Assembly: GCA_041745875.1 (NCBI GenBank)
Contig: JBGTIB010000306.1
Location: 298-64,297 of the forward strand
Origin: Flavobacteriales bacterium
Lineage (GTDB): Bacteria > Bacteroidota > Bacteroidia > Flavobacteriales_F > PHOS-HE28
Direction of reading: 5' to 3'
DNA: 64,000 nucleotides
Part shown: piece after piece, positions 26,558 to 43,550 of the stretch
Position numbering within the stretch: position 1 is the stretch's first letter
How the letters are laid out: the number at the start of each line of letters is the position of its first letter
Translations under genes and position numbers: made by a program
The notes under the pieces: generated by a model
Seen by the model: the letters and a program-made list of their open reading frames with translations, nothing else
Told to the model about the DNA's origin: nothing
Database searches by the model: none

Positions 26558-26598
26558 TATTCCAGAAGCCTTTACCACCATACAACTTTGCCAACCTC

Positions 26599-28452
26599 AT
26601 GAGGTGCCCCAATACCATTTGCCTCGCCTTGCTCATGACCAGCAATGCATGGTCACAGTCCGCGGATAGTACCGGCATTCCCATGTGGGATAGCCCGGCA
26701 ACACGCACGTTGGCGGATACGACAAGGATCATCACCCTGCTTGACAGTGCCCGGGCATGGGTGGGCCAGGGCGAGACGGAGCGACCCGTGCATGTTACAG
26801 CCGCTGCCTTGGAACTGATATCGGGCATCCCCTTGCCGAACTCCGCCGAGGACTGGTTGGGCATCCGGACCATGCAGGCCAACAAGCTGCAGGGTATCGC
26901 CCACCACTATGCGGGTCGTTATGCGAAGGCACTGGACAGCTTCCAACACATGGAAGTGGCAGCACACGCCCAGGGTCGCGATAAGGATGTTGCCGCCGCA
27001 CTCAACTACCAGGGTTACCAGTATCGCTCCATGGTCGAGTTGGAACGCGCACGCGCCATTACACTGCGCGCGTTGCGGATCCTGCAAGGTCTGCCCGAGG
27101 ATGGCAACCTGGCCAATACGTATTCCGGCCTGGGCGCGATCTATTTCGACCTGGCCCGCATGGACAGTGCCTTGATCCTGCAACAAAATGCGGTGGAACT
27201 AAATGAACGCCTGGGCTATGACTATTACGCTGCCTTGTGCAGGATGGCTGTCGCAGAGATCCACAATCACAATTCCCATTTCCAGGACGCCGCCGAGGAG
27301 ATCCGACTGGCACGACCTGCCGTGATGGAGGAGGGTAGCCCACCCGACCAGGTCATCTTCCTGTATCATGAGGCACGCGCGTTCATGGGCACCCAACGCA
27401 TCAAGGACGCCGAGGCCAGTGCGCGACAGGCCATGGACCTGGCCACCGAGGTCGGGAACGACGAGTATGTTTTCCGCAGCCTGGAATTATTGGCCTTGGT
27501 GGCCAGTGCCCAGGAACAGTTCGGGCTCGCCATGGAACTACAGGATTCGGCGAGAATGGCGCTGGTACGCACCCTTGATCTGGCCAAGGCACAGGAACTG
27601 ACCGAAGTGCGCCTGACCGCCGAGCATGAACGCGAAGCCGCCCAAGCACAACTGCTCCTGAACGAGGAGAAGCGTCAGAAGAAGTACATGATGATCGGCG
27701 GTGGGCTGGTGGCGTTGATCGCGGCACTGCTCCTTTGGTCCCTGCTGGCAGCGCGACGGAACGCAGCGTTGTTGCGATCGAAGAACGAGGAGATACTGCG
27801 CGCTCAAAGCAGGGTGGTCGAAGTGGAAAAGCAGCGCGAGAACGAAGCGGTGCGCACACGCATCGCGCGGGATATCCACGACGACATCGGCAGCGGGCTT
27901 ACCAAGATCACCATGCTCGGCAACGATGCCAAGCGCCGCATGAGCGATGCCTCTGAAGAGCTTCAATCGTCGCTGGACCGCATCATAGGCCACAGCCGCG
28001 AGGTTTCCGCAGCATTGAGCGATATCGTCTGGACCGTGGACCCCTTGCATGACACCAGTGCTGAACTCGTCTCCCATGCCCGCATGGTGACCCAGCGCTT
28101 GTTGGAGGACACGGACCTGCAGGCTGAATTGCGGTTCACACACAATGATCCATCGCACCCAGTATCGCCCAATACCAAACACCACGTGATGATGGTGTTG
28201 AAGGAGGCCCTGAACAACGCCATGAAATATGCGGGCAAAAGCAACGTGGTGGTGGAGTTCAAGGCAGGGGCGCACCGCGTGGACTTGCGCGTCTCAGATG
28301 ATGGACCAGGATTTGGCCCAGTGCTAACAGGACGTGAAGGGAATGGGCTACGCAACATGCGGAAGCGTGCGGAGGCCATCGGCGCAACGCTTACGATAAA
28401 CGCTTCTCCAGGTAAGGGTTGTACCGTATCGCTACAAGGAGCACTTGATTGA
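26599..28452 (+). CDS. TPR-repeat sensor histidine kinase (paralog)
   Basis: Same architecture: RIARDIHDDIGSGLTKI, GNGLRNMRKRAEAIG; start moved to MRCPNTICLALLMTSNAWSQ. Confidence 0.85.
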   Translation: MRCPNTICLALLMTSNAWSQSADSTGIPMWDSPATRTLADTTRIITLLDSARAWVGQGETERPVHVTAAALELISGIPLPNSAEDWLGIRTMQANKLQGIAHHYAGRYAKALDSFQHMEVAAHAQGRDKDVAAALNYQGYQYRSMVELERARAITLRALRILQGLPEDGNLANTYSGLGAIYFDLARMDSALILQQNAVELNERLGYDYYAALCRMAVAEIHNHNSHFQDAAEEIRLARPAVMEEGSPPDQVIFLYHEARAFMGTQRIKDAEASARQAMDLATEVGNDEYVFRSLELLALVASAQEQFGLAMELQDSARMALVRTLDLAKAQELTEVRLTAEHEREAAQAQLLLNEEKRQKKYMMIGGGLVALIAALLLWSLLAARRNAALLRSKNEEILRAQSRVVEVEKQRENEAVRTRIARDIHDDIGSGLTKITMLGNDAKRRMSDASEELQSSLDRIIGHSREVSAALSDIVWTVDPLHDTSAELVSHARMVTQRLLEDTDLQAELRFTHNDPSHPVSPNTKHHVMMVLKEALNNAMKYAGKSNVVVEFKAGAHRVDLRVSDDGPGFGPVLTGREGNGLRNMRKRAEAIGATLTINASPGKGCTVSLQGALD

Positions 28453-29123: not shown

Positions 29124-29153
29124 CACACGGCGCATACCACTAAGGTGTTATTG

Positions 29154-29180
29154 CCGGGTACCAAGCAGCCCGGTTCTTTT
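29154..29180 (+). terminator. possible intrinsic terminator after the response regulator
   Basis: ccggg-taccaagcag-cccgg followed by ttcTTTT. Confidence 0.35.
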
Positions 29181-29242
29181 GGATGGTCGCTCCAATTACG
29201 GAGCGAATGTCCATGGCACGCTACCGGGAAATTATCCGAAAC

Positions 29243-30937
29243 ATGCGCATCTCCGTGAGATCGGCGAAGGCATGCGCGGTCTTGGTCGCATTCCCTATGG
29301 GACTGCAGGCACAGGACCTGGGGCAGGTCGGCAGTAAAAAACCTTTCGGGCTGAATGGCAGCATCAGCCTGCAAGGTGGGCCGTACTTCTACAGTGGTGA
29401 CGGCGCCCCCCGCAACCAGCCGTTCTTCTGGAACAGTACGGGCACGTTGAACCTCTCCGTCTACGGGTGGCAGGCACCCTTCAGCTACTCGGTGGGTTCG
29501 CAGGAGCGCAGCTGGACCCAGCCCTTCAACCGCTACGGTGTAAGCCCGTACTACAAGTGGATCAGGTTGCACGTCGGCTATCGCAGCATGCGCTTCAACC
29601 CATACACGTTCGCAGGGCTCCAATTTCTGGGCGGGGGTGTGGAGCTTGAACCGAAGGGCTTCCGTTTCGCTGCATTCTATGGTCGGTTCAACAAGCCGAT
29701 CGCACAGGATACGCTTGGCACCATCGTTCCCATACCAGCCTATCGACGCATGGGTATGGGTGTCAAGGTCGGAGTAGGCAATCGGAGGAGCTATGCGGAC
29801 ATTATGCTGGTCCGGGCCCAGGATGACACGAACTCCATACCCGAAGTTCGATCGGGCACACGCATGGCCCCGATGGAGAACCTGGTCCTGGGCTTGAGCG
29901 GTCGTGTGGCGCTGGGGCCAAAGGTCACCTGGGAATTCGACCTGGGTGCCAGCGCGATGAACGAGGATGTGCGTGCACCGCGCGTGGACCCGAGCGACCT
30001 CCCTCGCTTCGCCGATGGCCTCTTCGTGCAACGCTACGGTAGCAAAGCGCTCTTTGCCGGGCACACGGCTCTGCGGTGGAACGCCCGGCGATTCACGATG
30101 CGTGTGCAGTACAAGGAAGTAGAACCGGGATATCGCTCCCTGGCCGCATTCTATCAGCAGACCGACCTGCGTGCCATCACCATGGAACCCAGCTTTCGTC
30201 TGGCAAAAGGAAAGTTGCGGGTCGGTGGCAGCTATGGCTTGCAACAGGACAACATCCGCAACACCAAAATGGCGGGGTCGCAGCGCCGCATCGGCTCGGC
30301 GAACGTGAGCTGGAACCCTTCGCAGAAGTACGGTCTCGATGCAAGTTTCTCCAATTATGGCATTGCTCAGCAGAGCGGACTTCAAGCGCTGAACGACACT
30401 TTCCGTGTGGCCCAGAACAACCGCAACATCGCGCTTTCCCAGCGCATGATGTTCACCAACAAGGTACGCACCTGGAATCTGATGCTATCCACCGGTCATC
30501 AGCAATTGCAAGACTTGAATCCCTTCGGCACCTATGCCACCACGGAGAACGAAGTGCTGTACGCGAACCTCTTCCTGTCTCGGGTGCGCATGCGCGACAA
30601 CCTGATGGTGAACGGCGGATTGAACGCGAACAGCAACGCCACCGCCACCGGCCGGTTCCTGCTCATTGGCCCCTCCTTGGGCTGTTCTCGTCCGTTCGCG
30701 GAACAGAGGCTCACCCTTTCCCTGAGCGCAAGCTTCAACAAGGCGTTCCTCAACGGACAGGATGCGGGCAGCACACTCAATGCAAGCCATATGATGAACT
30801 ACCGAATAGGCAAAATGCACCGCCTCCAATTATCCATCACGGCCCTGCTGAACAAGACCTCTTTCGTGGCTGCACGCGAATTCACCGAAGTGCGTTTCAT
30901 GGGCGGCTATGTATTGACCTTCCAAACCAAGTCCTGA
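29243..30937 (+). CDS. outer-membrane beta-barrel protein of unknown family
   Basis: Signal peptide MRISVRSAKACAVLVAFPMGLQAQ; alternating-hydrophobic strands with aromatic girdle residues throughout (LSVYGWQAPFSYSVG, VGYRSMRFNPYTFAG, FRFAAFYGRF). Confidence 0.65.
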   Translation: MRISVRSAKACAVLVAFPMGLQAQDLGQVGSKKPFGLNGSISLQGGPYFYSGDGAPRNQPFFWNSTGTLNLSVYGWQAPFSYSVGSQERSWTQPFNRYGVSPYYKWIRLHVGYRSMRFNPYTFAGLQFLGGGVELEPKGFRFAAFYGRFNKPIAQDTLGTIVPIPAYRRMGMGVKVGVGNRRSYADIMLVRAQDDTNSIPEVRSGTRMAPMENLVLGLSGRVALGPKVTWEFDLGASAMNEDVRAPRVDPSDLPRFADGLFVQRYGSKALFAGHTALRWNARRFTMRVQYKEVEPGYRSLAAFYQQTDLRAITMEPSFRLAKGKLRVGGSYGLQQDNIRNTKMAGSQRRIGSANVSWNPSQKYGLDASFSNYGIAQQSGLQALNDTFRVAQNNRNIALSQRMMFTNKVRTWNLMLSTGHQQLQDLNPFGTYATTENEVLYANLFLSRVRMRDNLMVNGGLNANSNATATGRFLLIGPSLGCSRPFAEQRLTLSLSASFNKAFLNGQDAGSTLNASHMMNYRIGKMHRLQLSITALLNKTSFVAAREFTEVRFMGGYVLTFQTKS

Positions 30938-30940
30938 GCC

Positions 30941-33900
30941 ATGGACCGATCGATTTCCCTGCCATTGGGCTTTGCCGCAACGCTATTGCTACAAGTGAAC
31001 ATGACGCATGCGCAAGACCCCTACCCGATCCAGATCACCATTGCGGTGCTGCCGCCCTATTCGGCGAGCATGCAATACTATTTCACCGATGCGGCCAACA
31101 TGGCCTTCTTCATCACGAACAACACCGACGAAGAAAGATACATCTACCTGGCCGGATCCATTGCCACCGTCGATGGCAGCATTTCCGCAGTGGTGGATGG
31201 TAGTATGCCTTGGAACGCACAGGCGCTCGTGATCCCTCCGAATGTGGTCAGTATGGAGTTCAGGGGAGGTACTCTGGAACCAATTCTGCAGGCCATAGGC
31301 AGCAATCCCGCTTCGCTCGATGGCATTTCCGAAGAGCAGCTTCGGCTGGGTATCCTGCCCGAGGGTAATTACAGGATCTGTCTCCAAGCCTTCGACTATT
31401 CCAACCCCGGCCTGGAGCTTTCGCGAGAGGGTGCATGTTCCAACATCATCTCGATCCGCGAAGGAGAACCTCCCGAACCACTGAACCCCACATGCGGAGC
31501 GGACGGTAACGGTGAGATGTTGACGCCCCAGACCCCGCAGCTCATCAACTTCATGTGGGTGTTGCCCGGAGGGCCGCCACCCGGGGCCCTTGTAAGCTAT
31601 GAGTTCCGGCTCGTTCGCATCGACAGCCCCTCCAATGCGCAGGCCGCCCTGGAGACCAGTACCGATGTGGTGCACGAGCAGGAGGTGATGACCACCATCC
31701 TGAACTATACGCAGATGATGCCAGCGTTGGAGGAAGGGCGCATGTATGCATGGTGGGTGCGCGCCATCCCGTTCCCACAAGATGCCGTGGTGTTCCGCAA
31801 CAACGGCTATATGCGGCCCTGTACATTCACCTATGCGGAACATGCAGATTCGGAATTCTCGTTGACCTATCCCGCGCAACATGACACCCTGCCCTGGGAT
31901 CTGCTGCCGATAATGGCCCGTTTCGAACCGCACGCCGGACCCTATGACATGCCCACCACGGGCCGCTTTTATAGCCGCCTGGTCACCACCGAGAACAGCG
32001 CAACGCTCAACACCATCCATCGCCAGGGTGAGAACGATGACATCCGCTGGGAGCAAGGCTACTTCCGCGCGCAATACGAATTGCTTGGCAGGCCGGCCGA
32101 CTTCACCGAAGAGCAGGCCCGGCACATCAACATCTACACCAATACACCTGCGATCCAGGACCGCTTCAAACGGGGAAGGCGATATGTACTGGAAGGGGAC
32201 ATCCGCACAAAGGATACCGACAACAGTGACGTCCGATATGGAGATGTGAGCGGCCTCTTCGTATCGGGCATGGGCAAGCCTCGGCCCCTGACCCCGGAGC
32301 ACAACGCGACCCTGCCCAAGAACGGGGGAGATACGACCACGACCGGTTTTTCGCCGGTCGTCCTTCGCTTTCAAACCGCCGAGACGCCCTTCGCACTGCG
32401 CCCTCCATTCCCCATACGCATCCTATACGGCAGCAATGCGCCCACCACCACCCAAGGCACGGCACACGAACGCTGGCTTCTGGAGGTCTCGCGCAGCCCC
32501 ACCATGAGCAACCCCATCCTGAGCAGCAGCGTGGAACTCGGGCCAACACTGTTGGTGGACCCCGCATGTGATGAGGAGTGCATGAGGAGCACCTTTTACT
32601 ACGTCGACTCCGTGCACTTCACTCCATCGGATACCGGAACCTTCTATTGGCGTGTCGCATGGATGCTTGACCCCACATCCGCCATGGGCGAGACCTACCA
32701 CGATGGCCCCGTACGCCAGTTCCGGATCACCGCCAATGATACCGTCCCACCACCGGCCGAACAGGAGGAGGAGCGGCCGCGTGAATGCGTGAGCATTTGC
32801 CGCGCGGAGCCCACACCCATTGCACAACGGATACCTGTGATGGACGTCGGTGTGAACGATACTGTCTCCGTGGGCCTGTTCAACATGCTCATCTCATCGA
32901 TCACCTGGACGGGTGGTAGTGCGAACGGGGAAGGCTTCATCCCCGTGCCCTTCATGAACTGCCCCATGAAGGTGAGCTTCACCAATGCACAGATCAATGA
33001 ACACAAGGTGCTGTACACTGGCGAAGTGCTGGGCCAATACGATAATGAAGCCATTGTACCGGCGGCATGGCGCACAGGTGCAGGGCTGGCCGCAGGATTC
33101 AGCCCGGGTGCGGTGCAGGCGATCGATGACTACCTCAATGCCACTGGACGGCTTACCACGCAAATGACCGGCAACATCCCCATGGGGCTCCCCATCGGGA
33201 TCGCCACCGATGTGCCAGGCGGTCGCTTTACGGTGGGCATCGTGGGGATGCAGTTCACCGATAGCGTCGCAAAGCTCAATGCGATGATGAGCGTACCGGT
33301 GCCTGAACTGGGCTTCAACTACGGGCTTGGGGTCAGCGATCAAGTGTTCCAACCCGATGGTGTTGGTTGCCCCGACCAGGATGCACTGCTCTACCTGGTG
33401 GATGATGTGCGCGTAGGCGTTGGTGGTGATACACTGGTGGTGCGCAGTACGCGGTTCGAGCCGGGCAACTACATCAATGTGGTGGACTCGGGCACCTTCG
33501 CGGCATGGGATTGCCGAGGCTTCCGCGCGCTGCAGCTCGATGCGGAATGGCGCTTCAGCCGCGACCACCTGCGCGAGGACAGGACCGATGGCACCTCCGG
33601 CCCGGACAAGATCATAGCCTCGCTGAAGACCCGCACCGGGCGCGGAGGTTTCATGGGACGTGTGGACTTCAATAAACCCTTCCACGTCGACGGTGCCGAG
33701 GGCTGGGGGATCGCCGTGCAGGAAGCCTGGTTGGACCTGGCCAGCTACACGAACCCGCCCGACATGAGCCTTTCTCCGGAGGTGGCCCAGCGGGTGGGCC
33801 TGATGGACGCCAATGGCGTTGCAGACCCCACGTGGCGTGGCTTCTACCTGAAACGCGCAATGCTCCGATTGCCCGATGGCGTGAAACGCTTTGGCAATAC

Positions 33901-36900
33901 CGAGCGCGTAACGGCCTTGATCGATGACATGGTGGTACACAACGGCCAGCTCACAGCGAGCTTCAAACTGGCCAGCTTGATCGGTGTGAACGAAGGCGAC
34001 CTGGCCGGTTGGGCGATCTCAGTTGATACGTTGCAAATGGACATCATCGCCAACAGTTTCAGCCAGGCCGTCATGAAAGGCCGCATGCGGACCGCAGTGA
34101 GCTCCACCCTTCTGGACTACACCGCATTGTGGCGGCAAAACCCGATCACATCCGACCATTGGATCGAATTCCTGATCGAACCCCAGGAGGATGTCCTGAT
34201 CCCGGTCCCCTTCCTTTCCGCCAACCTGCTGCTCGAAGAGACCAGTACGGTGGTGGGCACGCTCGGGCATGAACAAACTGGGAACTATGCGAAGGCCACC
34301 CTCAACGGATCGCTCACCCTGGCCAGTCCACCCTCGGCAGCCGTGGCGATGAACATCAGTGGTGTCGCCTTCGAGAACCTCTGGTTCAGTACACAAGAGC
34401 CCTACACCAACATTGACAGCACGGCGCTTTTCTCACACGCCAGTCCGCAGAAGTACATGGGTGGAGAACCTTTGGATGACGCCGGAGCGCCACCGACGTC
34501 GGGGGGCAGTACCGGCGGATTCCCCATCAGCATCACGCGCGTCACCGGTGAGCGCACCACCATCGATGGCAAGCCTGCTGCCGGTCTCGCCTACGACATC
34601 AACCTGAACCTGACGGGCACCTCGAACATCTTCGTCGCCACCACGCGCGTGGCCACGCTGGGCGTGCTCAACACGACCGAGATCCACCAGTGGGGCGATC
34701 ATGAGATGCGGCTGGATTCCATCGGCGTTGACGGAGAGATCGGATCCGTGAAAGTGAATGGTGGGTTGAAGTGGTACCGCGACAGCCCGACCTATGGTAA
34801 TGGCATCAAGGGGAGCCTACGCGCAGAGTTCATGAACCGCAAGGTGCAGGTGGAAGCTGCCGCGCAATTCGGGTCGGTGAACGGCTACAAGTACTGGTAT
34901 GTGGATGCCATGGTGGCCAAGAAACCCGGCTGGAACTGGCCCTCTCCGATCACGATCTACGGTTTCGGGGGTGCTGCATGGTATCACATGAAGAAGCATG
35001 GCGCCCTGCCCCAGGCAGCCATGCTTACCGTCGATCAGCTACTCGCCGATGTGGATCCTTCCATGGAACCGGGGTATACCTACAGCGGCCTTGCCTTCAC
35101 GCCGGACCAAGGTGTTGGTTTCGGCTTGGAGGCAACACTGGTCTTCAGTGATCCGGGCACCACCAGTACCTACAACGGCAACGTCTCCCTGGGAGCGCAA
35201 TTCAATAACACCACAGGGGGCTTGCTGGAACTGTACCTGGATGGCGACCTCTATGTGATGAAGGAAGTGAACAGTGTCGGGCACGTGCCCATATATGGCA
35301 ACGGCCGGATCAGCTATGACTTCCCCAACGATGTATTCGCGGCCGGGTTCGAGATGTTCGTGAATGTAGGACCGGGCAAGGTTTACGGTTTGGGACCGCA
35401 GAACCGCGCAGGGCGACTCGATCTATTCGTGAATTCCGACTCGTGGCACTTGCACGTCGGCAACCCGGATGATCGCGTGCAGTTGACGATCGCCGGGCTC
35501 ACCACGGGAGGCTTCTATTTCATGGTAGGCGATGACCTTCCCCAGGTACCCATGCCCCCGCCTGAGGTGGCGAACCTCGTTCCTGCTGGTTACCTGGTAC
35601 GCGACGATCTGAGTGATGCTGGTGGGGTGGCGTTCGGTGCGAACGTGTACTTCGCGCATGCCGACACCGTGCTGATCTTCTACTACAAGCTGAACGGGCA
35701 GTTCGGGTTCGACATCACTTTCCGCGATGCTGGCGAACTGGTCTGCATGGGCGAGACAGATCCTGGTATCGGCCCCTTCTATGCGCGGGGCCAACTGTAT
35801 GCGCATATGGGCGCTGCCGTCGGCATCATCCTGGACGCCGGTTTCTTTTCGGGAAGCTATCACCTGTTCGATGTGGGCCTGGCCGGCTTGTTCCAATGCG
35901 GCTTCGCCAACCCCTCCTGGCTGAAGGGCTTTGTATACGGCGAGTACAGCATCCTGCATGGCATGGTGCGTGGCTCGATCAACCTGCCATTCCAGGCCGG
36001 AGACCAATGCGAGCCGCCGAACAGTGGCCTCCTCGACGGCTTGAACCCCATCGGCGACCTCAGCCCTGAAGATTTCAGTGGCCTGCCGCCGCTCTGCACG
36101 GATGCGAAAGTGTGCGGTGTGGATTGCGGCACCATGCCCGAAGCCATATTCAATATGAAGGTCGATCATGCATTCACCATGCACGAAATGCGCTCGAACG
36201 GTACCTGGCTGCCACGCACCTTCAAGCTGGAGGTCGAGCACTTCGAACTGCGCAAGAAGAGCACCAATGCCCTCGTCGCAGGCACCATCAGCATGGCCAC
36301 GAACAAGGAGATGGCTACGCTGGGCCCCAACGCCTACCTGGAGCCCAACACCGAGTTCACGGTATCCATAAAAGTCCGTGCCCAGGAACTGAAGAACGGC
36401 ATCTGGGAGGTGGTGAAGAGGGACAATGTGCCCGTGATATGGATGAAGAAGCACAGCTTCAAGACCAATACGGGGATCGAAGAATTGCGCCCGCAGGACG
36501 TGGCTTGGAGCTACCCCTTCCTACGCCAGCGATTCCTGCTGCAGGACGAATGCCGCAACGGGATCATCGACTGCAAAAGCAGCTTGGCCGACCAGCCGGT
36601 GTTCAAAGCTCCACCAGGAAGGCGGCGTGAGTACCGCGTGGTCTTCGTACCCGTCACAGGTGGGGCCATGGTGGAGCGCGATGTCGAACTGAACCTTACG
36701 GATAGCACGACCGCATTGTCCTTCGCGATACCACCCTTACAGAACAGCAAGACCTACACCTTGAAGGTGGTGGCGCGCGACGTGATCGATGCATCCACCA
36801 TGGGCATTACCGAGGAAGGTCCTGCTTCTTCCGGCGGCTTCAACCCGCAGGAACATATGCAGGGGCTGTTGAATACCCAGGTACAGAACACCGGGATCGC

Positions 36901-37933
36901 TGTTGTCGGTGGTTCGTCCACCGCGTTGCACGGAGGCATGGTGAACGTTTTCCGGAGATCGCTGGAGGGCTACACCTTGCGGGAGGATGAGAAACTCATC
37001 TATGAGTATTCATTCCGAACCTCGCAGCACAATACCCTTTCCGCAAAGGCTGCCGCGCTGGCGAACAGTGGTACCAACTACCTGGCCAGCACACATGTGC
37101 CAGCCCGCGAAACTTTGGAGCCCGCCTTCATAGGCGAAGGCTTCGACACTTTCGATGCGAATGGGTTCAACAGCACACGCAACACGGGCCCCTTTACCAT
37201 TCACCCCATGGTGTTCCTGTATGCCACCAACACGGACAACTGGATGAGCAACTGGGCCAAGCCCGTGCTCTATGACTACTACGCCATCATCAAGGACGCA
37301 GGTTGCAGCGACATGCAGCTGGCACGTTCCACGATCACATTTGGTGGCGAAATGTTCGGCACCACCATTATCCGCGACACGCCCGATACCATCGGGATGC
37401 CACCATACAACACCGTACGCTTCCACCCCAACACGCTCATCTGGTCCGCGCTTTCCGACAGCGAGGCGGTACCCAGCATCGGTTCGGGCTTGCCCGGAGC
37501 TGCTGGCGGCATCAACAGCATGGGCGATGGCTCTTCGGGGAACCAGACCATCCTGCAAATAACCACAGGGGCTTGGACCAGGAACGATTACATCCGGCTG
37601 AAGACCATCACCAACGATGTGATCGTCAACTGCGGACCGCTGATCCCTGTGATCGACGGAGCAGGAGAGCCATGGGGCGGATTTGCGGAACCGTTGCGCA
37701 GCAAAGTGCTTGCATTCCTGAACGGATACCGCCGCATGTACAACGGCAGCTACCGCACCACCTTACGCTTTATTCCGCCGCCCAGTTGCCCTTGGAACTA
37801 CATCGAACAAGGTGATGAGCTCCTTGCACCAGGCACATCCGGGGAGGCCGTGTACAGCCATCCGCTCGGTGCCGCGCCACCCATGCCCGGGGCAGGTCCA
37901 TTGCCAGGGGGAGGTGGCATCATCCAGAACTAA
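30941..37933 (+). CDS. giant secreted protein (2330 aa), function unknown
   Basis: Uninterrupted ORF; signal peptide MDRSISLPLGFAATLLLQVNMTHAQ; starts 3 nt after the OMP stop; no T9SS CTD or S74 domain recognised. Confidence 0.85.
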   Translation: MDRSISLPLGFAATLLLQVNMTHAQDPYPIQITIAVLPPYSASMQYYFTDAANMAFFITNNTDEERYIYLAGSIATVDGSISAVVDGSMPWNAQALVIPPNVVSMEFRGGTLEPILQAIGSNPASLDGISEEQLRLGILPEGNYRICLQAFDYSNPGLELSREGACSNIISIREGEPPEPLNPTCGADGNGEMLTPQTPQLINFMWVLPGGPPPGALVSYEFRLVRIDSPSNAQAALETSTDVVHEQEVMTTILNYTQMMPALEEGRMYAWWVRAIPFPQDAVVFRNNGYMRPCTFTYAEHADSEFSLTYPAQHDTLPWDLLPIMARFEPHAGPYDMPTTGRFYSRLVTTENSATLNTIHRQGENDDIRWEQGYFRAQYELLGRPADFTEEQARHINIYTNTPAIQDRFKRGRRYVLEGDIRTKDTDNSDVRYGDVSGLFVSGMGKPRPLTPEHNATLPKNGGDTTTTGFSPVVLRFQTAETPFALRPPFPIRILYGSNAPTTTQGTAHERWLLEVSRSPTMSNPILSSSVELGPTLLVDPACDEECMRSTFYYVDSVHFTPSDTGTFYWRVAWMLDPTSAMGETYHDGPVRQFRITANDTVPPPAEQEEERPRECVSICRAEPTPIAQRIPVMDVGVNDTVSVGLFNMLISSITWTGGSANGEGFIPVPFMNCPMKVSFTNAQINEHKVLYTGEVLGQYDNEAIVPAAWRTGAGLAAGFSPGAVQAIDDYLNATGRLTTQMTGNIPMGLPIGIATDVPGGRFTVGIVGMQFTDSVAKLNAMMSVPVPELGFNYGLGVSDQVFQPDGVGCPDQDALLYLVDDVRVGVGGDTLVVRSTRFEPGNYINVVDSGTFAAWDCRGFRALQLDAEWRFSRDHLREDRTDGTSGPDKIIASLKTRTGRGGFMGRVDFNKPFHVDGAEGWGIAVQEAWLDLASYTNPPDMSLSPEVAQRVGLMDANGVADPTWRGFYLKRAMLRLPDGVKRFGNTERVTALIDDMVVHNGQLTASFKLASLIGVNEGDLAGWAISVDTLQMDIIANSFSQAVMKGRMRTAVSSTLLDYTALWRQNPITSDHWIEFLIEPQEDVLIPVPFLSANLLLEETSTVVGTLGHEQTGNYAKATLNGSLTLASPPSAAVAMNISGVAFENLWFSTQEPYTNIDSTALFSHASPQKYMGGEPLDDAGAPPTSGGSTGGFPISITRVTGERTTIDGKPAAGLAYDINLNLTGTSNIFVATTRVATLGVLNTTEIHQWGDHEMRLDSIGVDGEIGSVKVNGGLKWYRDSPTYGNGIKGSLRAEFMNRKVQVEAAAQFGSVNGYKYWYVDAMVAKKPGWNWPSPITIYGFGGAAWYHMKKHGALPQAAMLTVDQLLADVDPSMEPGYTYSGLAFTPDQGVGFGLEATLVFSDPGTTSTYNGNVSLGAQFNNTTGGLLELYLDGDLYVMKEVNSVGHVPIYGNGRISYDFPNDVFAAGFEMFVNVGPGKVYGLGPQNRAGRLDLFVNSDSWHLHVGNPDDRVQLTIAGLTTGGFYFMVGDDLPQVPMPPPEVANLVPAGYLVRDDLSDAGGVAFGANVYFAHADTVLIFYYKLNGQFGFDITFRDAGELVCMGETDPGIGPFYARGQLYAHMGAAVGIILDAGFFSGSYHLFDVGLAGLFQCGFANPSWLKGFVYGEYSILHGMVRGSINLPFQAGDQCEPPNSGLLDGLNPIGDLSPEDFSGLPPLCTDAKVCGVDCGTMPEAIFNMKVDHAFTMHEMRSNGTWLPRTFKLEVEHFELRKKSTNALVAGTISMATNKEMATLGPNAYLEPNTEFTVSIKVRAQELKNGIWEVVKRDNVPVIWMKKHSFKTNTGIEELRPQDVAWSYPFLRQRFLLQDECRNGIIDCKSSLADQPVFKAPPGRRREYRVVFVPVTGGAMVERDVELNLTDSTTALSFAIPPLQNSKTYTLKVVARDVIDASTMGITEEGPASSGGFNPQEHMQGLLNTQVQNTGIAVVGGSSTALHGGMVNVFRRSLEGYTLREDEKLIYEYSFRTSQHNTLSAKAAALANSGTNYLASTHVPARETLEPAFIGEGFDTFDANGFNSTRNTGPFTIHPMVFLYATNTDNWMSNWAKPVLYDYYAIIKDAGCSDMQLARSTITFGGEMFGTTIIRDTPDTIGMPPYNTVRFHPNTLIWSALSDSEAVPSIGSGLPGAAGGINSMGDGSSGNQTILQITTGAWTRNDYIRLKTITNDVIVNCGPLIPVIDGAGEPWGGFAEPLRSKVLAFLNGYRRMYNGSYRTTLRFIPPPSCPWNYIEQGDELLAPGTSGEAVYSHPLGAAPPMPGAGPLPGGGGIIQN

Positions 37934-37938
37934 TAGCC

Positions 37939-40002
37939 ATGCGCAACACGATCATCCAACTGCTCCTGCTTGTTGCCATCGCGCATCAGGCCAAAGGCCA
38001 GACCATACACGCCATCGCACGCAATCATGCCGATTCGGTAGTGCTGCGCTGGGCACCGGTGAGCGCCACTGCTTGGGCGCGCTACGCACAACACGGCTAT
38101 CGCGTGGAACGCATCGCGATCACCCATACCACTTCGCGCCGCGATGCCTTCACGCGTGTGGGACCGGACAGCATCCTGCCCTTCACGGTGGATGAACTGG
38201 TGGCGCGCTTCCCGGCCGACCACGCCGGTGCGGCCGCACTCGCACAACTAATGCACACGCCCCCCAAGTCGCCCACCCCGGAACCCGGGGACATGATGGC
38301 GGCGAAAGCTTCAGCGGACGAACTGACCATGCGCTGGTCCACCTGCCTGATGATCGCGGACCTCGATGCGTCCATCGCGCAAGCGCAGGGATTGCGCCTG
38401 GTGGACCGCGATACGAAGCCGAACACGAGCTACCTCTACCGGGTGATCGTGCTGGACCCGGAATACCCGGATACGACCCTCGTGAGCGTGGACCGCTCCC
38501 TAGGGCCCGAAGTGCAGCCCCGCGGACCAGAGCTGTATGCAGAGGAGAACGAGCGCCGCGTGACATTGCGCTGGGAACGGGAAGTTGCCAATACGGACTT
38601 CTCCGGCTTCTGGGTGGAACGTTCGCGCGATGGCAACACCTGGTCGCGACTTTCGACAGCGCCTTTCATCTCCACGGATGGTGATCCCGACAAACCCAAC
38701 CCATTCCACTACTTCACGGACACCACGCTCACACGCAACTACGAACCACATCACTACCGGGTGCTCGGCATCACACCCTTCGGAGAGTTGAGCACGGATG
38801 CCCCAGCGATCATCGCCATGGGACGCGACCGCACACCGCCGCCACAACCGGTGATAACAGAGGTCAAGGATGAGAACGGTCGCTTGGTGGTGCATTGGGA
38901 TCAAGCCGAAAGTGCACCGGACCTGCGCGGGTACCGCGTGGAGAAAGCACCCACCGCCAAGGGAGGACATTATCCTTTGCATAGCGGCATGCTAACCACA
39001 AGTACCCGCCAGTTCACGGACACCAGTACCTTCCTGATCGGCGAGAACCACTACCGCGTGGTGGCGATCGATACAGCAGGGAACGAATCGCGCTCGCCCG
39101 GAGGCTACGGCTTCCTGCGCGACTCCATTCCACCCGCTCCGCCTACTGGACTGGAGGGCGTCATCGACACCAGCGGTGTGGTCACCCTGCGGTGGAACCT
39201 GGGTCCGGAAATGGACATCAAGGGCTACCGTGTCTTCTTTGCGAACGCCGCCGATCACGAATTCAACAACCTCACCCCCGAGCCTTTCGCGGACACCGTC
39301 TTCGTGGACACGCTGCAGATGAACACGCTCACCAAGCGCATCCACTACCGCGTGGTGGCCGTGGACCGCAACTTCAACCACAGCGCGATGAGCGCAGTGC
39401 TCACGCTTACCCGGCCCGATCTGATCGCACCCGTGCCACCGGTCTTCAAACACTATGTGGTGAGCGACACGGCCGTGGTGATCCACTTCATCCCCAGCAG
39501 CAGCAAGGATGTCATGCGGCATCAACTGTTGCGCAGGGAGCACAACGATACCACATGGAAGGAGGTGTTGGTGCTGCCGAGCAGTGACAAGCGGCGTGAG
39601 TGGACCGACCGCAACGTGAGCGGACCGGCGTACTACAGCTACACCATGTTCGCGGTGGACAGCGCAGGCAATCGATCGGTCCGCGCAATGCCCTTGGATG
39701 TGCGTGTACACGCAAGGCTGAAACATGCTTCCGTCGGACAAGTGAAAGCCACGCGCATCGATGCCCGCACCGTGCAAGTGGGTTGGGCCCCTGCCACTGG
39801 CGCCGTGAAACACTACCTCGTCCTGCGCTCCAAGGACGACGGTGCTCCTGTGGCCGTGGGTTCGGTACCGGGTGATGCCCACACCTTCACGGATATTCGC
39901 CTGGCGGGCAAAGGCAGCTACAGCTACCTGGTGCAGGCGGTGTTCGAGGATGGCGGTTCCTCGCCCCTGGCGCGCACCCATGCGGCGCTCGATATGCGCT
40001 GA
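37939..40002 (+). CDS. secreted protein with multiple fibronectin type III-like domains
   Basis: Signal peptide; recurring Fn3-type signatures (VVLRWAP...GYRVERI; TLRWERE...GFWVERS; VVHWDQA...GYRVEKA; TLRWNLG...GYRVFFA; VQVGWAP...HYLVLRS); starts 5 nt after the giant ORF. Confidence 0.75.
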   Translation: MRNTIIQLLLLVAIAHQAKGQTIHAIARNHADSVVLRWAPVSATAWARYAQHGYRVERIAITHTTSRRDAFTRVGPDSILPFTVDELVARFPADHAGAAALAQLMHTPPKSPTPEPGDMMAAKASADELTMRWSTCLMIADLDASIAQAQGLRLVDRDTKPNTSYLYRVIVLDPEYPDTTLVSVDRSLGPEVQPRGPELYAEENERRVTLRWEREVANTDFSGFWVERSRDGNTWSRLSTAPFISTDGDPDKPNPFHYFTDTTLTRNYEPHHYRVLGITPFGELSTDAPAIIAMGRDRTPPPQPVITEVKDENGRLVVHWDQAESAPDLRGYRVEKAPTAKGGHYPLHSGMLTTSTRQFTDTSTFLIGENHYRVVAIDTAGNESRSPGGYGFLRDSIPPAPPTGLEGVIDTSGVVTLRWNLGPEMDIKGYRVFFANAADHEFNNLTPEPFADTVFVDTLQMNTLTKRIHYRVVAVDRNFNHSAMSAVLTLTRPDLIAPVPPVFKHYVVSDTAVVIHFIPSSSKDVMRHQLLRREHNDTTWKEVLVLPSSDKRREWTDRNVSGPAYYSYTMFAVDSAGNRSVRAMPLDVRVHARLKHASVGQVKATRIDARTVQVGWAPATGAVKHYLVLRSKDDGAPVAVGSVPGDAHTFTDIRLAGKGSYSYLVQAVFEDGGSSPLARTHAALDMR

Positions 40003-40088: not shown

Positions 40089-40574
40089 ATGACCAACGCC
40101 ATGCATCGAACATTGCTACTCCTTCCAATCATCCTCGCGTTGCCATCAGCCGCCCAGGAGGTGGTGGGCAGTGGCGGCGGCTATCACAGCGATACCGGTG
40201 TGGCGATCTCCTACACCATCGGCGAGGCCATGATCTCCACTGTGAGCACAGGCGGCACCACCCTCACGCAGGGCTTCCAACAGCCGTGGGCAGCGATCAC
40301 GACATATAATGACGAACCTGCACCGCAGGAGGGTGCGATCACTGTCTACCCCAACCCGGTGCGCCACGTGTTGCATGTCGCCATGGAAGGCATGCCCGAT
40401 GGACATCGCTATGTGCTACATGATGCTGCTGGCCGACAGATCACGGACGGCAACATCGCATCCACCATCACCGACATCAACATGGAGACCTACGCCAGCG
40501 GCGGGTACATCCTGCGCATCCTCGGACCCAAGAACAACACTGCCCGTTCCTTCAAGATCAACGTCACCCACTAA
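40089..40574 (+). CDS. small T9SS C-terminal-sorting-domain protein (161 aa)
   Basis: Signal peptide; ~60-aa mature region ending LTQGFQQP; CTD ITVYPNPVRHVLHV...GGYILRILGPKNNTARSFKINV. Confidence 0.75.
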   Translation: MTNAMHRTLLLLPIILALPSAAQEVVGSGGGYHSDTGVAISYTIGEAMISTVSTGGTTLTQGFQQPWAAITTYNDEPAPQEGAITVYPNPVRHVLHVAMEGMPDGHRYVLHDAAGRQITDGNIASTITDINMETYASGGYILRILGPKNNTARSFKINVTH

Positions 40575-40577: not shown

Positions 40578-43550
40578 ATGAAAAAGACCCTCCTCCTTCT
40601 CACGGTCCTTGCGCTCTCCCTGGGTGCATGGGCGCAAGCGCCGCAGCGCATCAGCTACCAGGCCATCCTGCGCGATGCCGGTGGTGCCATACAACCGAAC
40701 ACCAGCGCCACGCTCGGCCTCGCCGTGCTACAGGGCAGTGCCGGTGGACCTGTGGTGTACAACGAGAACCACGCGGTGACCACCAATGCTTTTGGACTGG
40801 CGAACGTTGCGCTTGGCGGAGGCACCGTGGTCACGGGCACATTCGCCCAGATCGATTGGAGCGATGGACCATATTTCGTGCGCACCAGTGTGAACGGCAC
40901 GCCCATCGGCACAAGTCAGTTGCTTAGCGTGCCTTATGCCCTCTTCGCGGAAACGAGCAACACGCCCGGGCAACAAGGGGAACAGGGCGAACAAGGCATA
41001 CCGGGTGAGCAGGGAATACAAGGCATTCAAGGGCCACAAGGTGACCCGGGACCACAAGGTGAACAGGGCGTACAAGGGCCTCCAGGGGCTGATGGCACGG
41101 GAGTGTCCATCCTGGGCTCACTTCCTGACGAGAACGATCTGCCTGCCACCGGGACAAATGGCGATGCTTACTTGGTGGATGGCGACCTCTATGTATGGAG
41201 TGCCAACACCAGTACATGGGAGAATGTTGGAAATATTCAAGGTCCACAGGGGATCCAGGGCATTCAAGGAATACAAGGAATACAAGGAATACCCGGCACG
41301 GCTGGCACCAATGGCACAAATGGCACGAACGGTATCGACGGAAGAACAGTCCTAAACGGTAACATCAACCCAGCTGCGGGTACTGGAGCCAACGGCGATT
41401 TCTACATCAACACATCTGCGAACATGCTCTTCGGTCCCAAGACAGCAGGTGTTTGGGGAACAGGTGTCTCCTTGGTTGGACCGGCCGGACTTCCAGGTGT
41501 ACCCGGAACCAACGGGACCAATGGTGTTGATGGCGCTCCCGGTACCAATGGTACAAATGGTATAAATGGCGTTGACGGAAGAACAGTGCTTAACGGGAAC
41601 ACCAACCCGGCCCCAGGAACGGGAGCGAACGGTGACTTCTACATCAACACATCTGCGAATACGCTATTCGGCCCCAAGACCGCTGGTGCTTGGGGAACAG
41701 GTGTTTCCTTGGTTGGACCTGCGGGAACGCCAGGCACACCCGGAACCAACGGGACCAATGGAACCGATGGGGCGCCAGGTTCCAATGGGACCAACGGCAC
41801 CAACGGCAAGACCGTGCTGAACGGTGCTGCGGACCCCACTGGCGGGATCGGCACCGATGGCGATTTCTACATCAACACCAGCACGAACTTCATCTTCGGG
41901 CCGAAGACCGGGGGCGCGTGGGGTGCGGGCACTTCGCTGGTGGGACCTGAAGGCCCAGGAGGTGGCGGTAGTGGTTGGGCGCTCACGGGGAATGCAGGAA
42001 CTGTTCCCGCGACGAATTTTGTCGGAACCACGGACGCTCAAGCACTTGCTTTTCGCGTCGAGAACGTTCCTGCTGGAACGATCGCGACGGACTCCGTGAA
42101 CGGAACGACAAGTTTTGGCAAGATGGCCCTGCGTGCCAATACCACCGGCACATTGAACACAGCCATCGGCTTCCAATCACTCCGCCTCAATACGGACGGA
42201 TACTGGAATACATCCGTAGGCTATCAGACGATGTATGGCAATACCAGCGGTTATGGCAACACGGCAACAGGTACCGGGGCTATGCAGAACAACACCGCAG
42301 GCCATAGCAATTCGGCTTACGGGTACCGCGCGCTATACTTCAATACAACAGGCCTCCGTAACGTCGCAATAGGCAGTACCGCCCTATATACCAACAATGC
42401 GGGCTCGAACAATGTGGCCGTCGGATGGAACGCACTTCGTATGAACACCACAGGTTCCTCAAACGTCGCCATCGGTATCCGTGCGCTACAAGAGAATTCG
42501 AACCGCAGCAACCTTGTCGCAATTGGAGATAGCGCCCTATTCAACAATGGTATCGGAGCGGCGCCGATCAATGATATCGACTCACCGAACGAAGCCGCCG
42601 GCAACGTGGCCGTGGGCAGTAAAGCATTGTTCGCAAATACCATAGGCAAGTTCAATACTGCAACGGGTTCCGGGGCATTGGATGCCAATATCAGTGGTGA
42701 TCGAAATACGGGCATGGGCAATGGTGCGTTGAGCGGAAGCGCATTTGCGGACGAATGCACGGCGATCGGTGCCAGCGCACAAGGCAATACCTCGGGTTCC
42801 TTCAACACGTCGGTCGGATATAGGGCCATCCCTGGGGGAACAGGAACTTACAACACTGCTGTGGGCCATAACGCCGGCCAACTGTTCACGACTACGACAT
42901 ACTCGGCCGCACTCGGGCATCTCGCCTTGGGTAACGTGACCTCCGGAGGTTCGAATACCGGGGTTGGCAGCTTTGCTGGGCCATCCTCCGCCACATCGAG
43001 CAACTCCACTTCCTTGGGCTACCAAGCCACTTGCACAGCAGGCAACATGGCCCGTGTGGGCAACACCGCCGTGTCGAGTATCGGGGGATACGCGGGCTGG
43101 ACCACCCTACCCAGTGATGGCCGATTCAAACTAAACGTGGCCACTGACGTGAAGGGATTGGACTTCGTGATGCGGCTGCGACCGGTAACCTACAATGTGG
43201 ACGTGAACAAGATCGCGGCCCATTTGGGAGAGGATACCTACCTGGACGAGAATGGTGTTCGCACACCATTGCCCTTGAACTCCGACATCACTGCGGCGCG
43301 CGATGAGAAATCCGCCATACGATATACCGGTTTTATCGCCCAGGAAGTTGATGCTGCCGCTCAGGCGGTCGGCTTCGATTTCAGTGGAGTGGATAAGTCA
43401 CGCGATGGAGATGACATGCTCGGCCTTCGCTACGCTGAATTCGTTGTCCCCCTTGTAAAAGCCGTGCAAGAACAACAATCCATGATCGAGGCACAACAAA
43501 AGGAGATCGACGAACTGAAAGCACTGGTGCATCAACTACTCAAGCGCTGA
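40578..43550 (+). CDS. collagen-like repeat / tail-fibre-domain protein with C-terminal S74 intramolecular chaperone domain
   Basis: GXY tracts (GQQGEQGEQGIPGEQGIQGIQGPQGDPGPQGEQGVQGPPGADG; GPQGIQGIQGIQGIQGIPGTAGTNGTNGTNGIDG). C-terminal SDGRFKLNV...LRPVTYNVD...GFIAQEVDAAA...GLRYAEFVVPLVKAVQEQQ + coiled coil. Confidence 0.85.
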   Translation: MKKTLLLLTVLALSLGAWAQAPQRISYQAILRDAGGAIQPNTSATLGLAVLQGSAGGPVVYNENHAVTTNAFGLANVALGGGTVVTGTFAQIDWSDGPYFVRTSVNGTPIGTSQLLSVPYALFAETSNTPGQQGEQGEQGIPGEQGIQGIQGPQGDPGPQGEQGVQGPPGADGTGVSILGSLPDENDLPATGTNGDAYLVDGDLYVWSANTSTWENVGNIQGPQGIQGIQGIQGIQGIPGTAGTNGTNGTNGIDGRTVLNGNINPAAGTGANGDFYINTSANMLFGPKTAGVWGTGVSLVGPAGLPGVPGTNGTNGVDGAPGTNGTNGINGVDGRTVLNGNTNPAPGTGANGDFYINTSANTLFGPKTAGAWGTGVSLVGPAGTPGTPGTNGTNGTDGAPGSNGTNGTNGKTVLNGAADPTGGIGTDGDFYINTSTNFIFGPKTGGAWGAGTSLVGPEGPGGGGSGWALTGNAGTVPATNFVGTTDAQALAFRVENVPAGTIATDSVNGTTSFGKMALRANTTGTLNTAIGFQSLRLNTDGYWNTSVGYQTMYGNTSGYGNTATGTGAMQNNTAGHSNSAYGYRALYFNTTGLRNVAIGSTALYTNNAGSNNVAVGWNALRMNTTGSSNVAIGIRALQENSNRSNLVAIGDSALFNNGIGAAPINDIDSPNEAAGNVAVGSKALFANTIGKFNTATGSGALDANISGDRNTGMGNGALSGSAFADECTAIGASAQGNTSGSFNTSVGYRAIPGGTGTYNTAVGHNAGQLFTTTTYSAALGHLALGNVTSGGSNTGVGSFAGPSSATSSNSTSLGYQATCTAGNMARVGNTAVSSIGGYAGWTTLPSDGRFKLNVATDVKGLDFVMRLRPVTYNVDVNKIAAHLGEDTYLDENGVRTPLPLNSDITAARDEKSAIRYTGFIAQEVDAAAQAVGFDFSGVDKSRDGDDMLGLRYAEFVVPLVKAVQEQQSMIEAQQKEIDELKALVHQLLKR

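Follow-up and report, generated by a model that had tools for sequence, protein, structure and literature searches.

A conserved three-gene envelope cassette of Bacteroidota and neighbouring lineages links an undescribed outer-membrane barrel family to giant proteins with a TANFOR-like head

The DNA analysed in this work, hereafter the window, is a stretch of 64,000 nucleotides from a Flavobacteriales bacterium (assembly GCA_041745875.1, contig JBGTIB010000306.1, positions 298 to 64,297 of the forward strand), and its middle part carries three closely packed plus-strand genes that we call A, B and C (coordinates in Table 1). They make up the core of an envelope cassette conserved in Bacteroidota and in neighbouring lineages of the Fibrobacterota-Chlorobiota-Bacteroidota (FCB) group, in which A represents an undescribed, widespread family of outer-membrane β-barrels, B is a giant signal-peptide protein with a TANFOR-like head, and C is built of Fn3-like domains. 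A first-pass annotation, made from the letters of the window, had singled out the trio as an envelope module; the finding is real, and more general than the window alone showed. Based on sequence comparisons and structure models, we propose, with a probability of about one half, that A is an outer-membrane protein dedicated to translocating or anchoring B, which would amount to a two-partner-like logic assembled from unrelated parts.

The longest open reading frame (ORF) that contains A spans positions 29183 to 30937; the ATG at 29243, giving a protein of 564 amino acids (aa), is the start that agrees with the alignment of 27 homologues, and the signal peptide (MRISVRSAKACAVLVAFPMGLQA|QD) begins there. 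As read from the ORF list and its translations, A and B are separated by 3 nt (TGA-gcc-ATG) and B and C by 5 nt (TAA-tagcc-ATG), B comprises 2330 aa and C 687 aa, and the N-terminus of each of the three proteins has a hydrophobic, signal-like stretch ending in ...AQ or HA-Q. The ORFs and junctions are as the first-pass annotation had described them, and the same is true of the 86-nt gap between the end of C (40002) and the next gene start (40089); nothing convincing was found as a terminator 3' of C, just a 6-bp hairpin without a T-run at 39983-40001. A terminator-like hairpin is located between the upstream response regulator gene and A (Table 1), and the trio may thus have a promoter of its own, Bacteroidota-type promoters being outside the coverage of the promoter scan. 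Many orthologous loci display, according to their RefSeq annotation, a 17-nt overlap at the A/B junction. The arrangement is far beyond chance, its order being repeated in more than 150 independent loci.

For the analysis of synteny, ORFs were called in the loci and scored with hidden Markov models (HMMs) built from A, from the head of B and from C; three A-based genome scans were carried out, the best 80 loci of each scan being taken, among which those of Tannerella forsythia and Flavobacterium psychrophilum did not rank. Of the non-redundant A loci whose downstream sequence reaches 1.2 kb or more, 171 in all, 158 were scored by script as having a TANFOR-headed ORF next to A; five of the misses were artefacts, due to overlaps when ORFs are called from stop to stop, which brings the count to about 163/171. 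The reciprocal comparison started from 71 loci found through the TANFOR head alone; among the 60 with at least 2 kb of upstream sequence, A was found on the same strand and no more than 4 kb away in 52, and the remaining 8 are mostly truncated contigs. A gene of the C family follows the complete giant in 99/102 loci, with two of the three misses being artefacts. The same gene order was present on contigs with B homologues, even at 23% identity and where the kinases found upstream of the trio in the window are missing, and on contigs with distant A homologues; Chitinophagales and Saprospiraceae keep the linkage in a rearranged form, as B-C-A. This reciprocal linkage of A and the head, which persists in the rearranged order, was counted in favour of a partnership of A and B. 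Conserved synteny of the triad, proposed as a check by the first-pass annotation, extends over several Bacteroidota orders and into other lineages of the FCB group: among the carriers in culture are Pedobacter, Mucilaginibacter, Dyadobacter, Spirosoma, Larkinella, Runella, Flectobacillus, Arsenicibacter, Siphonobacter, Fibrisoma, Filimonas and Leadbetterella, and those known from metagenome assemblies comprise Bacteroidales, Lentimicrobium, Ignavibacteria, Kapaibacterium, Chloroherpeton, and bins labelled Latescibacterota and WOR-3.

Two variations of the cassette were observed, identified here by our own locus numbers. The B-C-A loci, including a few from other groups, are L113-L116, L119, L122, L130, L139, L140, L145, L149 and L156. 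An extra ORF of about 350 aa lies between B and C in Runella, Arsenicibacter, Spirosoma terrae, Nibrella and some Dyadobacter (L044, L048, L050, L064, L074, L185, L192, L200, L203, L209); its RefSeq counterparts in a published table have signal or lipoprotein leaders and no assigned domain.

Protein A was modelled with AlphaFold2 (AF2) on 28 homologues. The model (pLDDT 79.4, pTM 0.65) is all-β, with about 26 strands covering residues 35-560, and displays no N-terminal soluble domain, so that A lacks a POTRA. Over most of the chain, turns of 2-5 residues alternate with loops of 8-27 residues, which in the model is the usual outer-membrane pattern of short periplasmic turns and long loops. Foldseek comparison with the PDB returned outer-membrane barrels exclusively, many of them at probability 1.0; the best superpositions were with the FimD usher and MtrB (query TM-score, TMq, 0.46; ~10% identity), and the 22-strand TonB-dependent receptors came behind (TMq ~0.3). 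FimD has 24 strands and MtrB 26, and the fact that A falls in the size class of barrels that enclose or pass proteins was counted for a translocator. The generic features of outer-membrane β-barrels are all present, namely a signal peptide, an up-and-down meander and an aromatic β-signal: distant members of the family end in ...SF, ...AF or ...TF, which resembles a β-signal, and the clade of the window has four residues (QTKS) added after the terminal Phe. Both the barrel and the absence of a POTRA-like N-terminus had been read correctly from the translation alone.

The A family has so far remained outside the domain databases. A itself gave zero matches in Pfam, NCBIfam, PHROGs and PDB sequences, and no match was obtained for 28 diverse relatives in Pfam or for the family profile in the PDB. 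A profile search of 1.84 billion representatives yielded 3233 clusters, defined at 50% identity, at E<=1e-3 and 1692 at E<=1e-30; each of the 150 best matches measures 452-616 aa, and the family is large and length-invariant (527-616 aa). Among species-representative genomes, an A relative was found in 217, 294 and at least 585 with progressively general patterns. The invariant residues are concentrated in the first third of the protein (PF..G.SP.YKW..H.GYR, GGG.E, FR...YGRF and R.G.G.K.G.G), and such strong conservation suggests a functional site there, beyond a scaffold. Several genomes contain two paralogous A genes with ~35-40% mutual identity (L011/L227 from the same metagenome-assembled genome, MAG; L015/L232; L260/L266; L031/L269), each followed, in the annotated cases, by its own TANFOR-headed giant.

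Protein B is divided by BLAST and local HMM mapping into a head (residues 24-300, after the signal peptide), a lineage-specific region (301-610), a core (611-2100) and a tail (2101-2330); Table 1 lists the modelled portion of the core (611-1800) and what follows it as separate rows. The head matches the TANFOR domain TIGR02542 at residues 30-154 (E 6.3e-10), and with 39.1 bits it is below the NCBIfam cut-off of 67. The match lies within the limits used by Jana, Salomon and Bosis 2020 for an N-terminal TANFOR domain (E<=1e-7, at least 90 aa aligned; PMC7073777). Ten heads from other taxa likewise all match TIGR02542 below cut-off, the head alignment has the conserved motifs PPYS, LPEGxYxxC and GCS, and the head HMM matched every A-adjacent giant (E 1e-18 to 1e-126). 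In every one of these giants the head stands directly after the leader, and it is the sole part common to all of them. Searches with whole B and four pieces of it against Pfam at E<=10 assigned no family, apart from a weak Big_5 match at residues 1772-1817, PHROGs gave no match, and no usable hit came from PDB sequence and profile searches with B and the TANFOR head. Of what the first-pass annotation had said about B, that it carries no recognisable signature, the part that stood is the lack of type IX secretion system (T9SS) C-terminal domain (CTD), S74, two-partner secretion (TPS) and autotransporter domains, none of which was matched by Pfam or NCBIfam models, and the part that did not is the TANFOR domain, overlooked below its threshold. 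Membership of B in a characterised family, such as SprA/Sov or TamB, had been named there as a reason to abandon the proposal; B belongs to neither of these two, but, with a TANFOR-like head and orthologues in a published table, it falls in a described class, so that this objection applies by half.

The TANFOR domain was described in that work as the trafficking domain of a proposed class of Bacteroidetes polymorphic toxins, which includes validated C-terminal toxins; SprB, Fn3, PKD and T9SS-CTD domains were reported as enriched near TANFOR genes, and export by T9SS was speculated (PMC7073777). Another study also counts TANFOR among "trafficking domains". Supplemental Data 1 of PMC7073777 lists orthologous loci from Runella, Spirosoma, Larkinella, Siphonobacter, Arsenicibacter and Dyadobacter, several rows being the same records as loci found here. 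The rows sampled (approximately 185 to 230) correspond to Tannerella, Dyadobacter, Larkinella, Pedobacter, Spirosoma, Siphonobacter, Runella, Arsenicibacter, Mucilaginibacter and some Flavobacterium, and in them the gene upstream of the TANFOR gene encodes a domain-less signal-peptide protein of 544-574 aa, often with a 17-nt overlap, the gene downstream encodes an Fn3/COG3401 protein of 640-724 aa, and no toxin domain is given. The row of the type organism, Tannerella forsythia, has an upstream gene of 548 aa at -17 and a downstream 665-aa signal-peptide protein, which match A and C by size only (PMC7073777). The trio is thus present in the supplementary table and undiscussed in the main text as searched, where the words 'barrel' and 'porin' have zero occurrences and the three uses of 'outer membrane' all concern T9SS; this is to be set against an enrichment analysis that was based on domains and an A family that has no domain model. 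Our own literature search on Bacteroidota barrels and secretion found no description of the cassette. A word-indexed search retrieved 34 full-length B homologues, nearly all from uncultured Flavobacteriales, one of them labelled "TANFOR domain-containing protein" by the Joint Genome Institute (JGI).

Given this relationship, B could be regarded as a polymorphic toxin exported by T9SS, with A and C as unrelated envelope proteins or helpers, an explanation that finds some backing in the TANFOR-like head, in the validated toxins and the T9SS cargo genes enriched nearby in the published class (PMC7073777), and in the two T9SS-CTD genes located shortly downstream of the trio in the window. Nevertheless, no C-terminal toxin domain was detected in B with Pfam and NCBIfam, nor any Pfam toxin domain in the C-terminal 500 residues of ten giants related to it; B is not followed by a small immunity-like gene, the next gene being the 687-aa Fn3 protein C, 5 nt on; and the type A and type B CTD models were unmatched in B and in C, for which reason both were rejected as T9SS cargo. 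Conservation among 22 orthologues is even over the full length of B (0.24-0.67 per 50-residue window, minimum at 1951-2000, peaks at 700-1050 and 1200-1350), and the C-terminus is not variable. Furthermore, the neighbouring TetR and resistance-nodulation-division (RND) genes stay constant where B is 39-57% identical, unlike what is seen in toxin islands. We consider a toxin function highly improbable, and for this subclass it was rejected on the lack of a toxin domain, an immunity gene and a variable C-terminus; by sequence, B is best placed in a non-toxin subclass of the described TANFOR class.

Behind the head, the bodies of the giants are diverse, with at least three unrelated classes among A-linked giants. 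About half share the B core (class 1); those of Dyadobacter, Pedobacter, Larkinella and Mucilaginibacter form a second class of 2100-2700 aa, whose relatives in databases and in the published table bear CarboxypepD_reg domains; and a third class comprises shorter giants of 1400-1630 aa. A β-meander as a second universal module was accordingly discarded, as an iterated HMM search found it in 56 of 112 A-linked giants. A universal N-terminal head joined to variable bodies is the pattern expected of a targeting or docking domain, which is how we tentatively read the head from its sequence.

The AF2 model of B residues 611-1800 (pLDDT 74.7, pTM 0.43) is nearly all β, and residues 1196-1686 contain some 24 strands, each 10-20 residues long and joined by tight hairpins. 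Foldseek matches in the PDB included LptD, SlpA, FimD, the ApoB100 belt, MtrB and OprD porins, with E-values down to 2e-6 and TM-scores of merely 0.1-0.2; the latter preclude a fold assignment, and the model therefore points to local sheet similarity to barrels and belts without a global match. A PDB profile search with the core family gave nothing significant (best E 0.1), and the core matched no viral model in Foldseek at E<=0.001, leaving a phage-derived origin unsupported. These matches bring up the alternative that B is an LptD- or TamB/AsmA-like machine for envelope biogenesis or lipid transfer, a β groove or barrel which would span the periplasm and the outer membrane together with A. 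LptD (E 2e-6, probability 0.97) and the ApoB100 β-belt are indeed among the best matches, and the core is a long β-meander; on the other side stand the low TM-scores, the lack of LptD, TamB/DUF490, AsmA and Omp85 sequence signals, a leader in B that is cleavable rather than an inner-membrane anchor, and a patchy distribution, with two copies in some genomes and the core missing in half of the A-linked giants. The hairpin connections of B are, moreover, uniformly short in the model, unlike the alternation of turns and loops in A, and residues 1196-1686 are not read as a standard membrane barrel. Altogether, we judge such a machine very unlikely.

Protein C completes the cassette. Comparing segments of a family alignment (58 sequences) profile against profile revealed five clear Fn3-like repeats between residues 190 and 687 (pairwise hhalign probability 98-99%) and an N-terminal Fn3-like unit at 22-195 that is split by an insertion, in agreement with the approximately six domains first counted by eye. 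The last repeat alone is above threshold in Pfam (fn3, 599-674), residues 288-554 match multi-Fn3 ectodomains in a PDB sequence search, and no T9SS CTD was found in C with Pfam and NCBIfam. Ig-like domains, Fn3 arrays and CarboxypepD_reg are typical of Bacteroidota surface binding proteins, and it could be argued that the cassette is an uptake or capture system, Sus-like and devoid of TonB, with A as an import channel, having neither plug nor periplasmic domain, fed by B and C as surface binders; a cellulase (glycoside hydrolase) directly after C in L006 and a Fib_succ_major protein in the same place in L004 would fit such a role. We find this very unlikely, although a little less so than the lipid machine: SusC, SusD and TonB-box features are absent, few of the more than 200 loci have carbohydrate-active neighbours, the B and C of the window show no lipoprotein signals and would need an export route of their own, and a conserved head with a variable body suits docking better than substrate binding.

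Returning to A as translocator or anchor of B, the mechanism that we propose is as follows. Sec would send A, B and C each to the periplasm, where A would insert into the outer membrane as a wide barrel of 24-26 strands. Dedicated to B as its partner in the outer membrane, it would recognise the TANFOR and Fn3 head and then pass the rest of B to the surface, hold B by its head, or both. The role of C would be that of an obligatory accessory, as escort in the periplasm or as co-assembled stalk, and expression is probably under the control of the TPR-kinase/LuxR-type regulator pair encoded upstream. Such a cassette would give rise to a regulated structure on the cell surface, co-encoded in several lineages with collagen-like fibres. 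We infer contact between A and B, the direction of transport, the location of B and C, and the regulation from synteny and models. Besides the linkage, the close A/B junction (a 3-nt gap here, a 17-nt overlap in many orthologous loci), the barrel size, the conserved first third of A and the universal head, the reading draws on the Sec-type leaders of B and C, which in proteins lacking a T9SS CTD call for a route other than T9SS. Two further observations were counted in its support: the T. forsythia TANFOR protein WP_052449025.1 (3078 aa) was detected in a vesicle proteome table that covers outer-membrane vesicles and extracellular vesicles of infected macrophages, and leader-bearing, CTD-less collagen-like proteins are neighbours of the trio in three or four lineages.

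Several points weigh against this proposal. Contact between A and B is presumed from synteny; the barrel- and belt-like matches of the B core (LptD, SlpA) might mean that B is membrane-associated and no passenger; and a folded β body of 1200 residues could cross a barrel of 26 strands only with difficulty, short of export in an unfolded state or one domain at a time. Genes for T9SS cargo are often found nearby, and cooperation with T9SS is possible. The linkage has exceptions in both directions, as giants without A within 10 kb are found in L111, L127 and L138 (Glaciecola), and A is followed by something else in L051, L056, L175, L178 and L186. Finally, the toxin-type TANFOR rows of marine Flavobacteriaceae in the published table mostly show, upstream, a PKD lipoprotein or an SprB-like T9SS substrate in place of an A-sized protein (PMC7073777), and the pairing with A may be limited to a subclass. 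Rows 89 and 92 (Chitinophaga sp. BN140078 and F. psychrophilum) have upstream proteins of 574 and 562 aa that are A-like by size only, and the TANFOR protein is followed there by a small cytoplasmic ORF in a toxin/immunity-like layout (PMC7073777); if these are true A proteins, they would link A to toxin-type TANFOR members.

The Glaciecola case deserves a separate comment: the 1726-aa protein of L138 (9920-15097) has a TANFOR-like head and the meander module, and its record, titled Glaciecola amylolytica, is outside the FCB group. This species is a gammaproteobacterium, and the protein may reflect horizontal transfer or a mislabelled record.

The first-pass annotation had suggested that the trio may be the envelope-spanning or export part of a surface system; a conserved envelope module is what the synteny shows, and the export function we still infer. 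A broader version of the proposal, in which the A family defines a distinct FCB export or anchoring pathway, that is, a POTRA-less barrel for TANFOR heads with an Fn3-array co-factor, independent of T9SS, unrelated to type V, usher and other known systems, and serving non-toxin giants as well as at least part of the TANFOR toxins, is tentative, and we hold it to be rather less probable than the pairing of A and B itself.

Table 1. Features of the trio and of the adjacent genes in the window (all on the plus strand; positions are those of the window).
Feature	Position	Strand	Basis and remarks
Sensor kinase 1, TPR + HisKA_3 + HATPase_c	24422..26557	+	Pfam
Sensor kinase 2, TPR + HisKA_3 + HATPase_c	26503..28452	+	Pfam, ORF list
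Response regulator, receiver + LuxR/GerE helix-turn-helix	28449..29123	+	Pfam
Terminator-like hairpin, then TCTTTTGG	29153..29174	+	7-bp stem, consensus scan; regulator/A gap; weak evidence
A, 564-aa outer-membrane β-barrel with signal peptide, ~24-26 strands, no periplasmic domain (predicted)	29243..30937	+	AF2, Foldseek; ORF list, translation
B, 2330 aa, whole gene	30941..37933	+	ORF list, translation
B signal peptide MDRSISLPLGFAATLLLQVNMTHA|QD, aa 1-23	30941..31009	+	Read from translation; position conserved in homologues
B head, aa 24-300, TANFOR-like + Fn3-like	31010..31840	+	TIGR02542, head HMM
B lineage-specific region, aa 301-610	31841..32770	+	BLAST and HMM mapping; missing in distant relatives
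B core portion, aa 611-1800, all-β (model)	32771..36340	+	AF2, Foldseek
B C-terminal portion, aa 1801-2330	36341..37933	+	Conserved in orthologues; without recognisable toxin or sorting domain
C, 687-aa signal-peptide protein, six Fn3-like domains	37939..40002	+	Pfam, hhalign, PDB search; ORF list, translation
D, 161 aa, Por_Secre_tail T9SS CTD	40089..40574	+	Pfam; kept after C only in the Flavobacteriales clade
E, collagen-like fibre, three GDFYIN..FGPK units + S74 chaperone domain	40578..43550	+	Pfam Collagen, Peptidase_S74

Upstream of the trio, the two-kinase/one-regulator unit noticed at first reading was resolved by Pfam into two TPR-HisKA_3 kinases and a LuxR-type regulator (Table 1). 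Kinase and regulator homologues are located upstream in about half of the loci, including those of Spirosoma, Larkinella, Runella and Arsenicibacter, and a regulator homologue precedes A in many loci of several orders. The longest ORF of kinase 2 overlaps kinase 1 by 55 nt (26503-26557), its true start being perhaps further downstream; the two kinase genes of L003 are 3 nt apart. Divergently upstream of the kinases, a TetR gene and an RND efflux operon (OEP, HlyD-type adaptor and AcrB-type pump) occupy 17158-24224 on the minus strand, and they stand in the same place in two MAGs (L001 1-2212; L003 1-3344) whose B is 39-57% identical, which points to a stable chromosomal position of the locus in the clade.

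Downstream of C, the order is D, the collagen-like S74 fibre E, three S74 paralogues, a CTD protein and AraC regulators, followed by a fifth S74 paralogue and three FGE-sulfatase-like paralogues. The five paralogous S74 fibre-like genes (40578-54831) all have an S74 domain and none a T9SS CTD according to Pfam, and signal peptides are present in the two that were translated, E included. Associated with the S74 array are an AraC regulator and two T9SS-CTD proteins (40089-40574 and 49150-50670), the 161-aa and 506-aa neighbours matched by Pfam. A further AraC regulator (55021-56043) precedes the three tandem FGE-sulfatase-like paralogues (56297-62698), which we take to belong to the fold family of GldJ, GldK and PorK, and a domain-less 512-aa ORF (57863-59401) is found among them.

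The repeat type of E (a collagen run followed by G(D/N)(F/Y)Y(I/L)...(F/Y)GPK) was found near the trio at two placements: after the small CTD protein in the Flavobacteriales clade, and directly upstream of A on the same strand in all fetched Pedobacter/Mucilaginibacter loci, where the gap to A is ~64 nt in the one locus read and the one Pedobacter copy read is a lipoprotein without S74. Collagen-like neighbours of the trio are located at 40578-43550 in the window, 8126-9949 in L041, 19535-23200 in L001 and 5420-7279 in L155. Collagen+S74 proteins lie directly upstream of A in three Saprospiraceae loci. A, B and C might be parts of an appendage to which collagen/S74 fibres are attached, with B as the platform and the module exporting the fibres, which have leaders and no T9SS CTD and are operon-adjacent to the trio or flank A in the lineages just named. 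Most loci, however, have no fibre genes, collagen runs being present at 35/226 loci and S74 domains at 7/226 in the 8-10 kb around the trio, and in Cytophagales the neighbours are instead multi-Fn3 proteins with weak CTDs, as in Spirosoma, where a protein of 8-9 Fn3 domains comes after C (the L067 copy with a weak CTD match). We regard an appendage of this kind as unlikely, while noting that it overlaps with a pairing of A and B rather than excluding it. The tie to the fibre genes drawn by the first-pass annotation gains some support from the proteins with this repeat in Flavobacteriales and in Pedobacter/Mucilaginibacter and from the collagen+S74 proteins of Saprospiraceae; the fibres are a recurrent, lineage-specific accessory outside the conserved core, and S74 fibres were discarded as a core component.

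The relevance of these findings lies in that TANFOR already serves as a "trafficking domain" marker in the mining of polymorphic toxins, and that the sole export proposal made so far for it, T9SS, was put forward without a supporting sorting signal; the fact that TANFOR-headed giants stand nearly always beside one barrel family provides a concrete candidate route. Neither Pfam nor NCBIfam has a model for this family and none of its relatives has been solved, although it is present in at least 585 species-representative genomes. If A is indeed a translocator or anchor, a phylum of gut, oral, soil and aquatic bacteria would possess an added route of outer-membrane secretion or display, which would explain how giant proteins without a CTD, and perhaps collagen-like fibres, reach the surface. 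Otherwise, the trio would rank among the larger conserved, function-unassigned cassettes of Bacteroidota, meriting family definitions. The candidate route is testable by single-gene knockouts in cultured T. forsythia, Pedobacter, Dyadobacter, Spirosoma and some Flavobacterium.

Compared with known envelope systems, the cassette resembles in its logic two-partner secretion (FhaC/FHA, CdiB/CdiA), where a barrel gene is likewise adjacent and translationally coupled to that of a giant Sec-dependent exoprotein, and a conserved N-terminal module follows the leader and precedes a variable body, which in relatives of the class has a toxin at its C-terminus. TpsB is an Omp85-type barrel of 16 strands with two POTRA domains, whereas A has ~24-26 strands and neither POTRA nor Omp85/ShlB signature (the Pfam models ShlB, POTRA and Bac_surface_Ag were unmatched in A and 28 relatives); B lacks β-helix repeats and the TPS domain (no Haemagg_act match in residues 1-610, Pfam, E<=10), and the third, Fn3 gene is obligatory. 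Membership in TPS was rejected on these differences. TamA/TamB was rejected as well, as no DUF490, AsmA or Omp85 Pfam match was obtained and the leader of B is cleavable, so that the initial impression of a pair that is like neither system is upheld.

With the FimD/PapC ushers, MtrB and LptD, A shares the barrel size class, FimD and MtrB being its best structural matches, and usher systems also have partners with Ig-like domains. Identity is, by contrast, ~10%, A has neither the usher plug nor N- or C-terminal periplasmic domains, and there are no cytochromes, no LptE-like partner and no Pfam Usher or LptD signal. Chaperone-usher membership was discarded on the absence of Usher and PapD Pfam matches, the barrel alone superposing on FimD, and LptD membership on the absence of an LptD sequence signal and the TM-scores of 0.1-0.2 of the B core.

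The SprF/SprB-type T9SS adhesin pairs belong to the same phylum and also place a barrel gene beside a giant surface protein, with T9SS cargo nearby; they differ in that B has no CTD and A no Pfam match, PorP/SprF models included. PorP/SprF-type barrels, of ~300 aa, are smaller than A. An SprA-type protein measures ~2400 aa, and length alone is what B has in common with it: B is not SprA-like by sequence, no SprA model in Pfam or NCBIfam matched it, and SprA/Sov membership was rejected. A further close relationship is with the TANFOR class itself, from which B differs in having no C-terminal toxin, immunity gene or C-terminal polymorphism and in its score of 39 against 67 bits, and with which it shares a giant size, a Sec leader followed by a TANFOR-like and an Fn3-like domain, Fn3 and T9SS-CTD genes nearby, and a distribution restricted to Bacteroidota/FCB.

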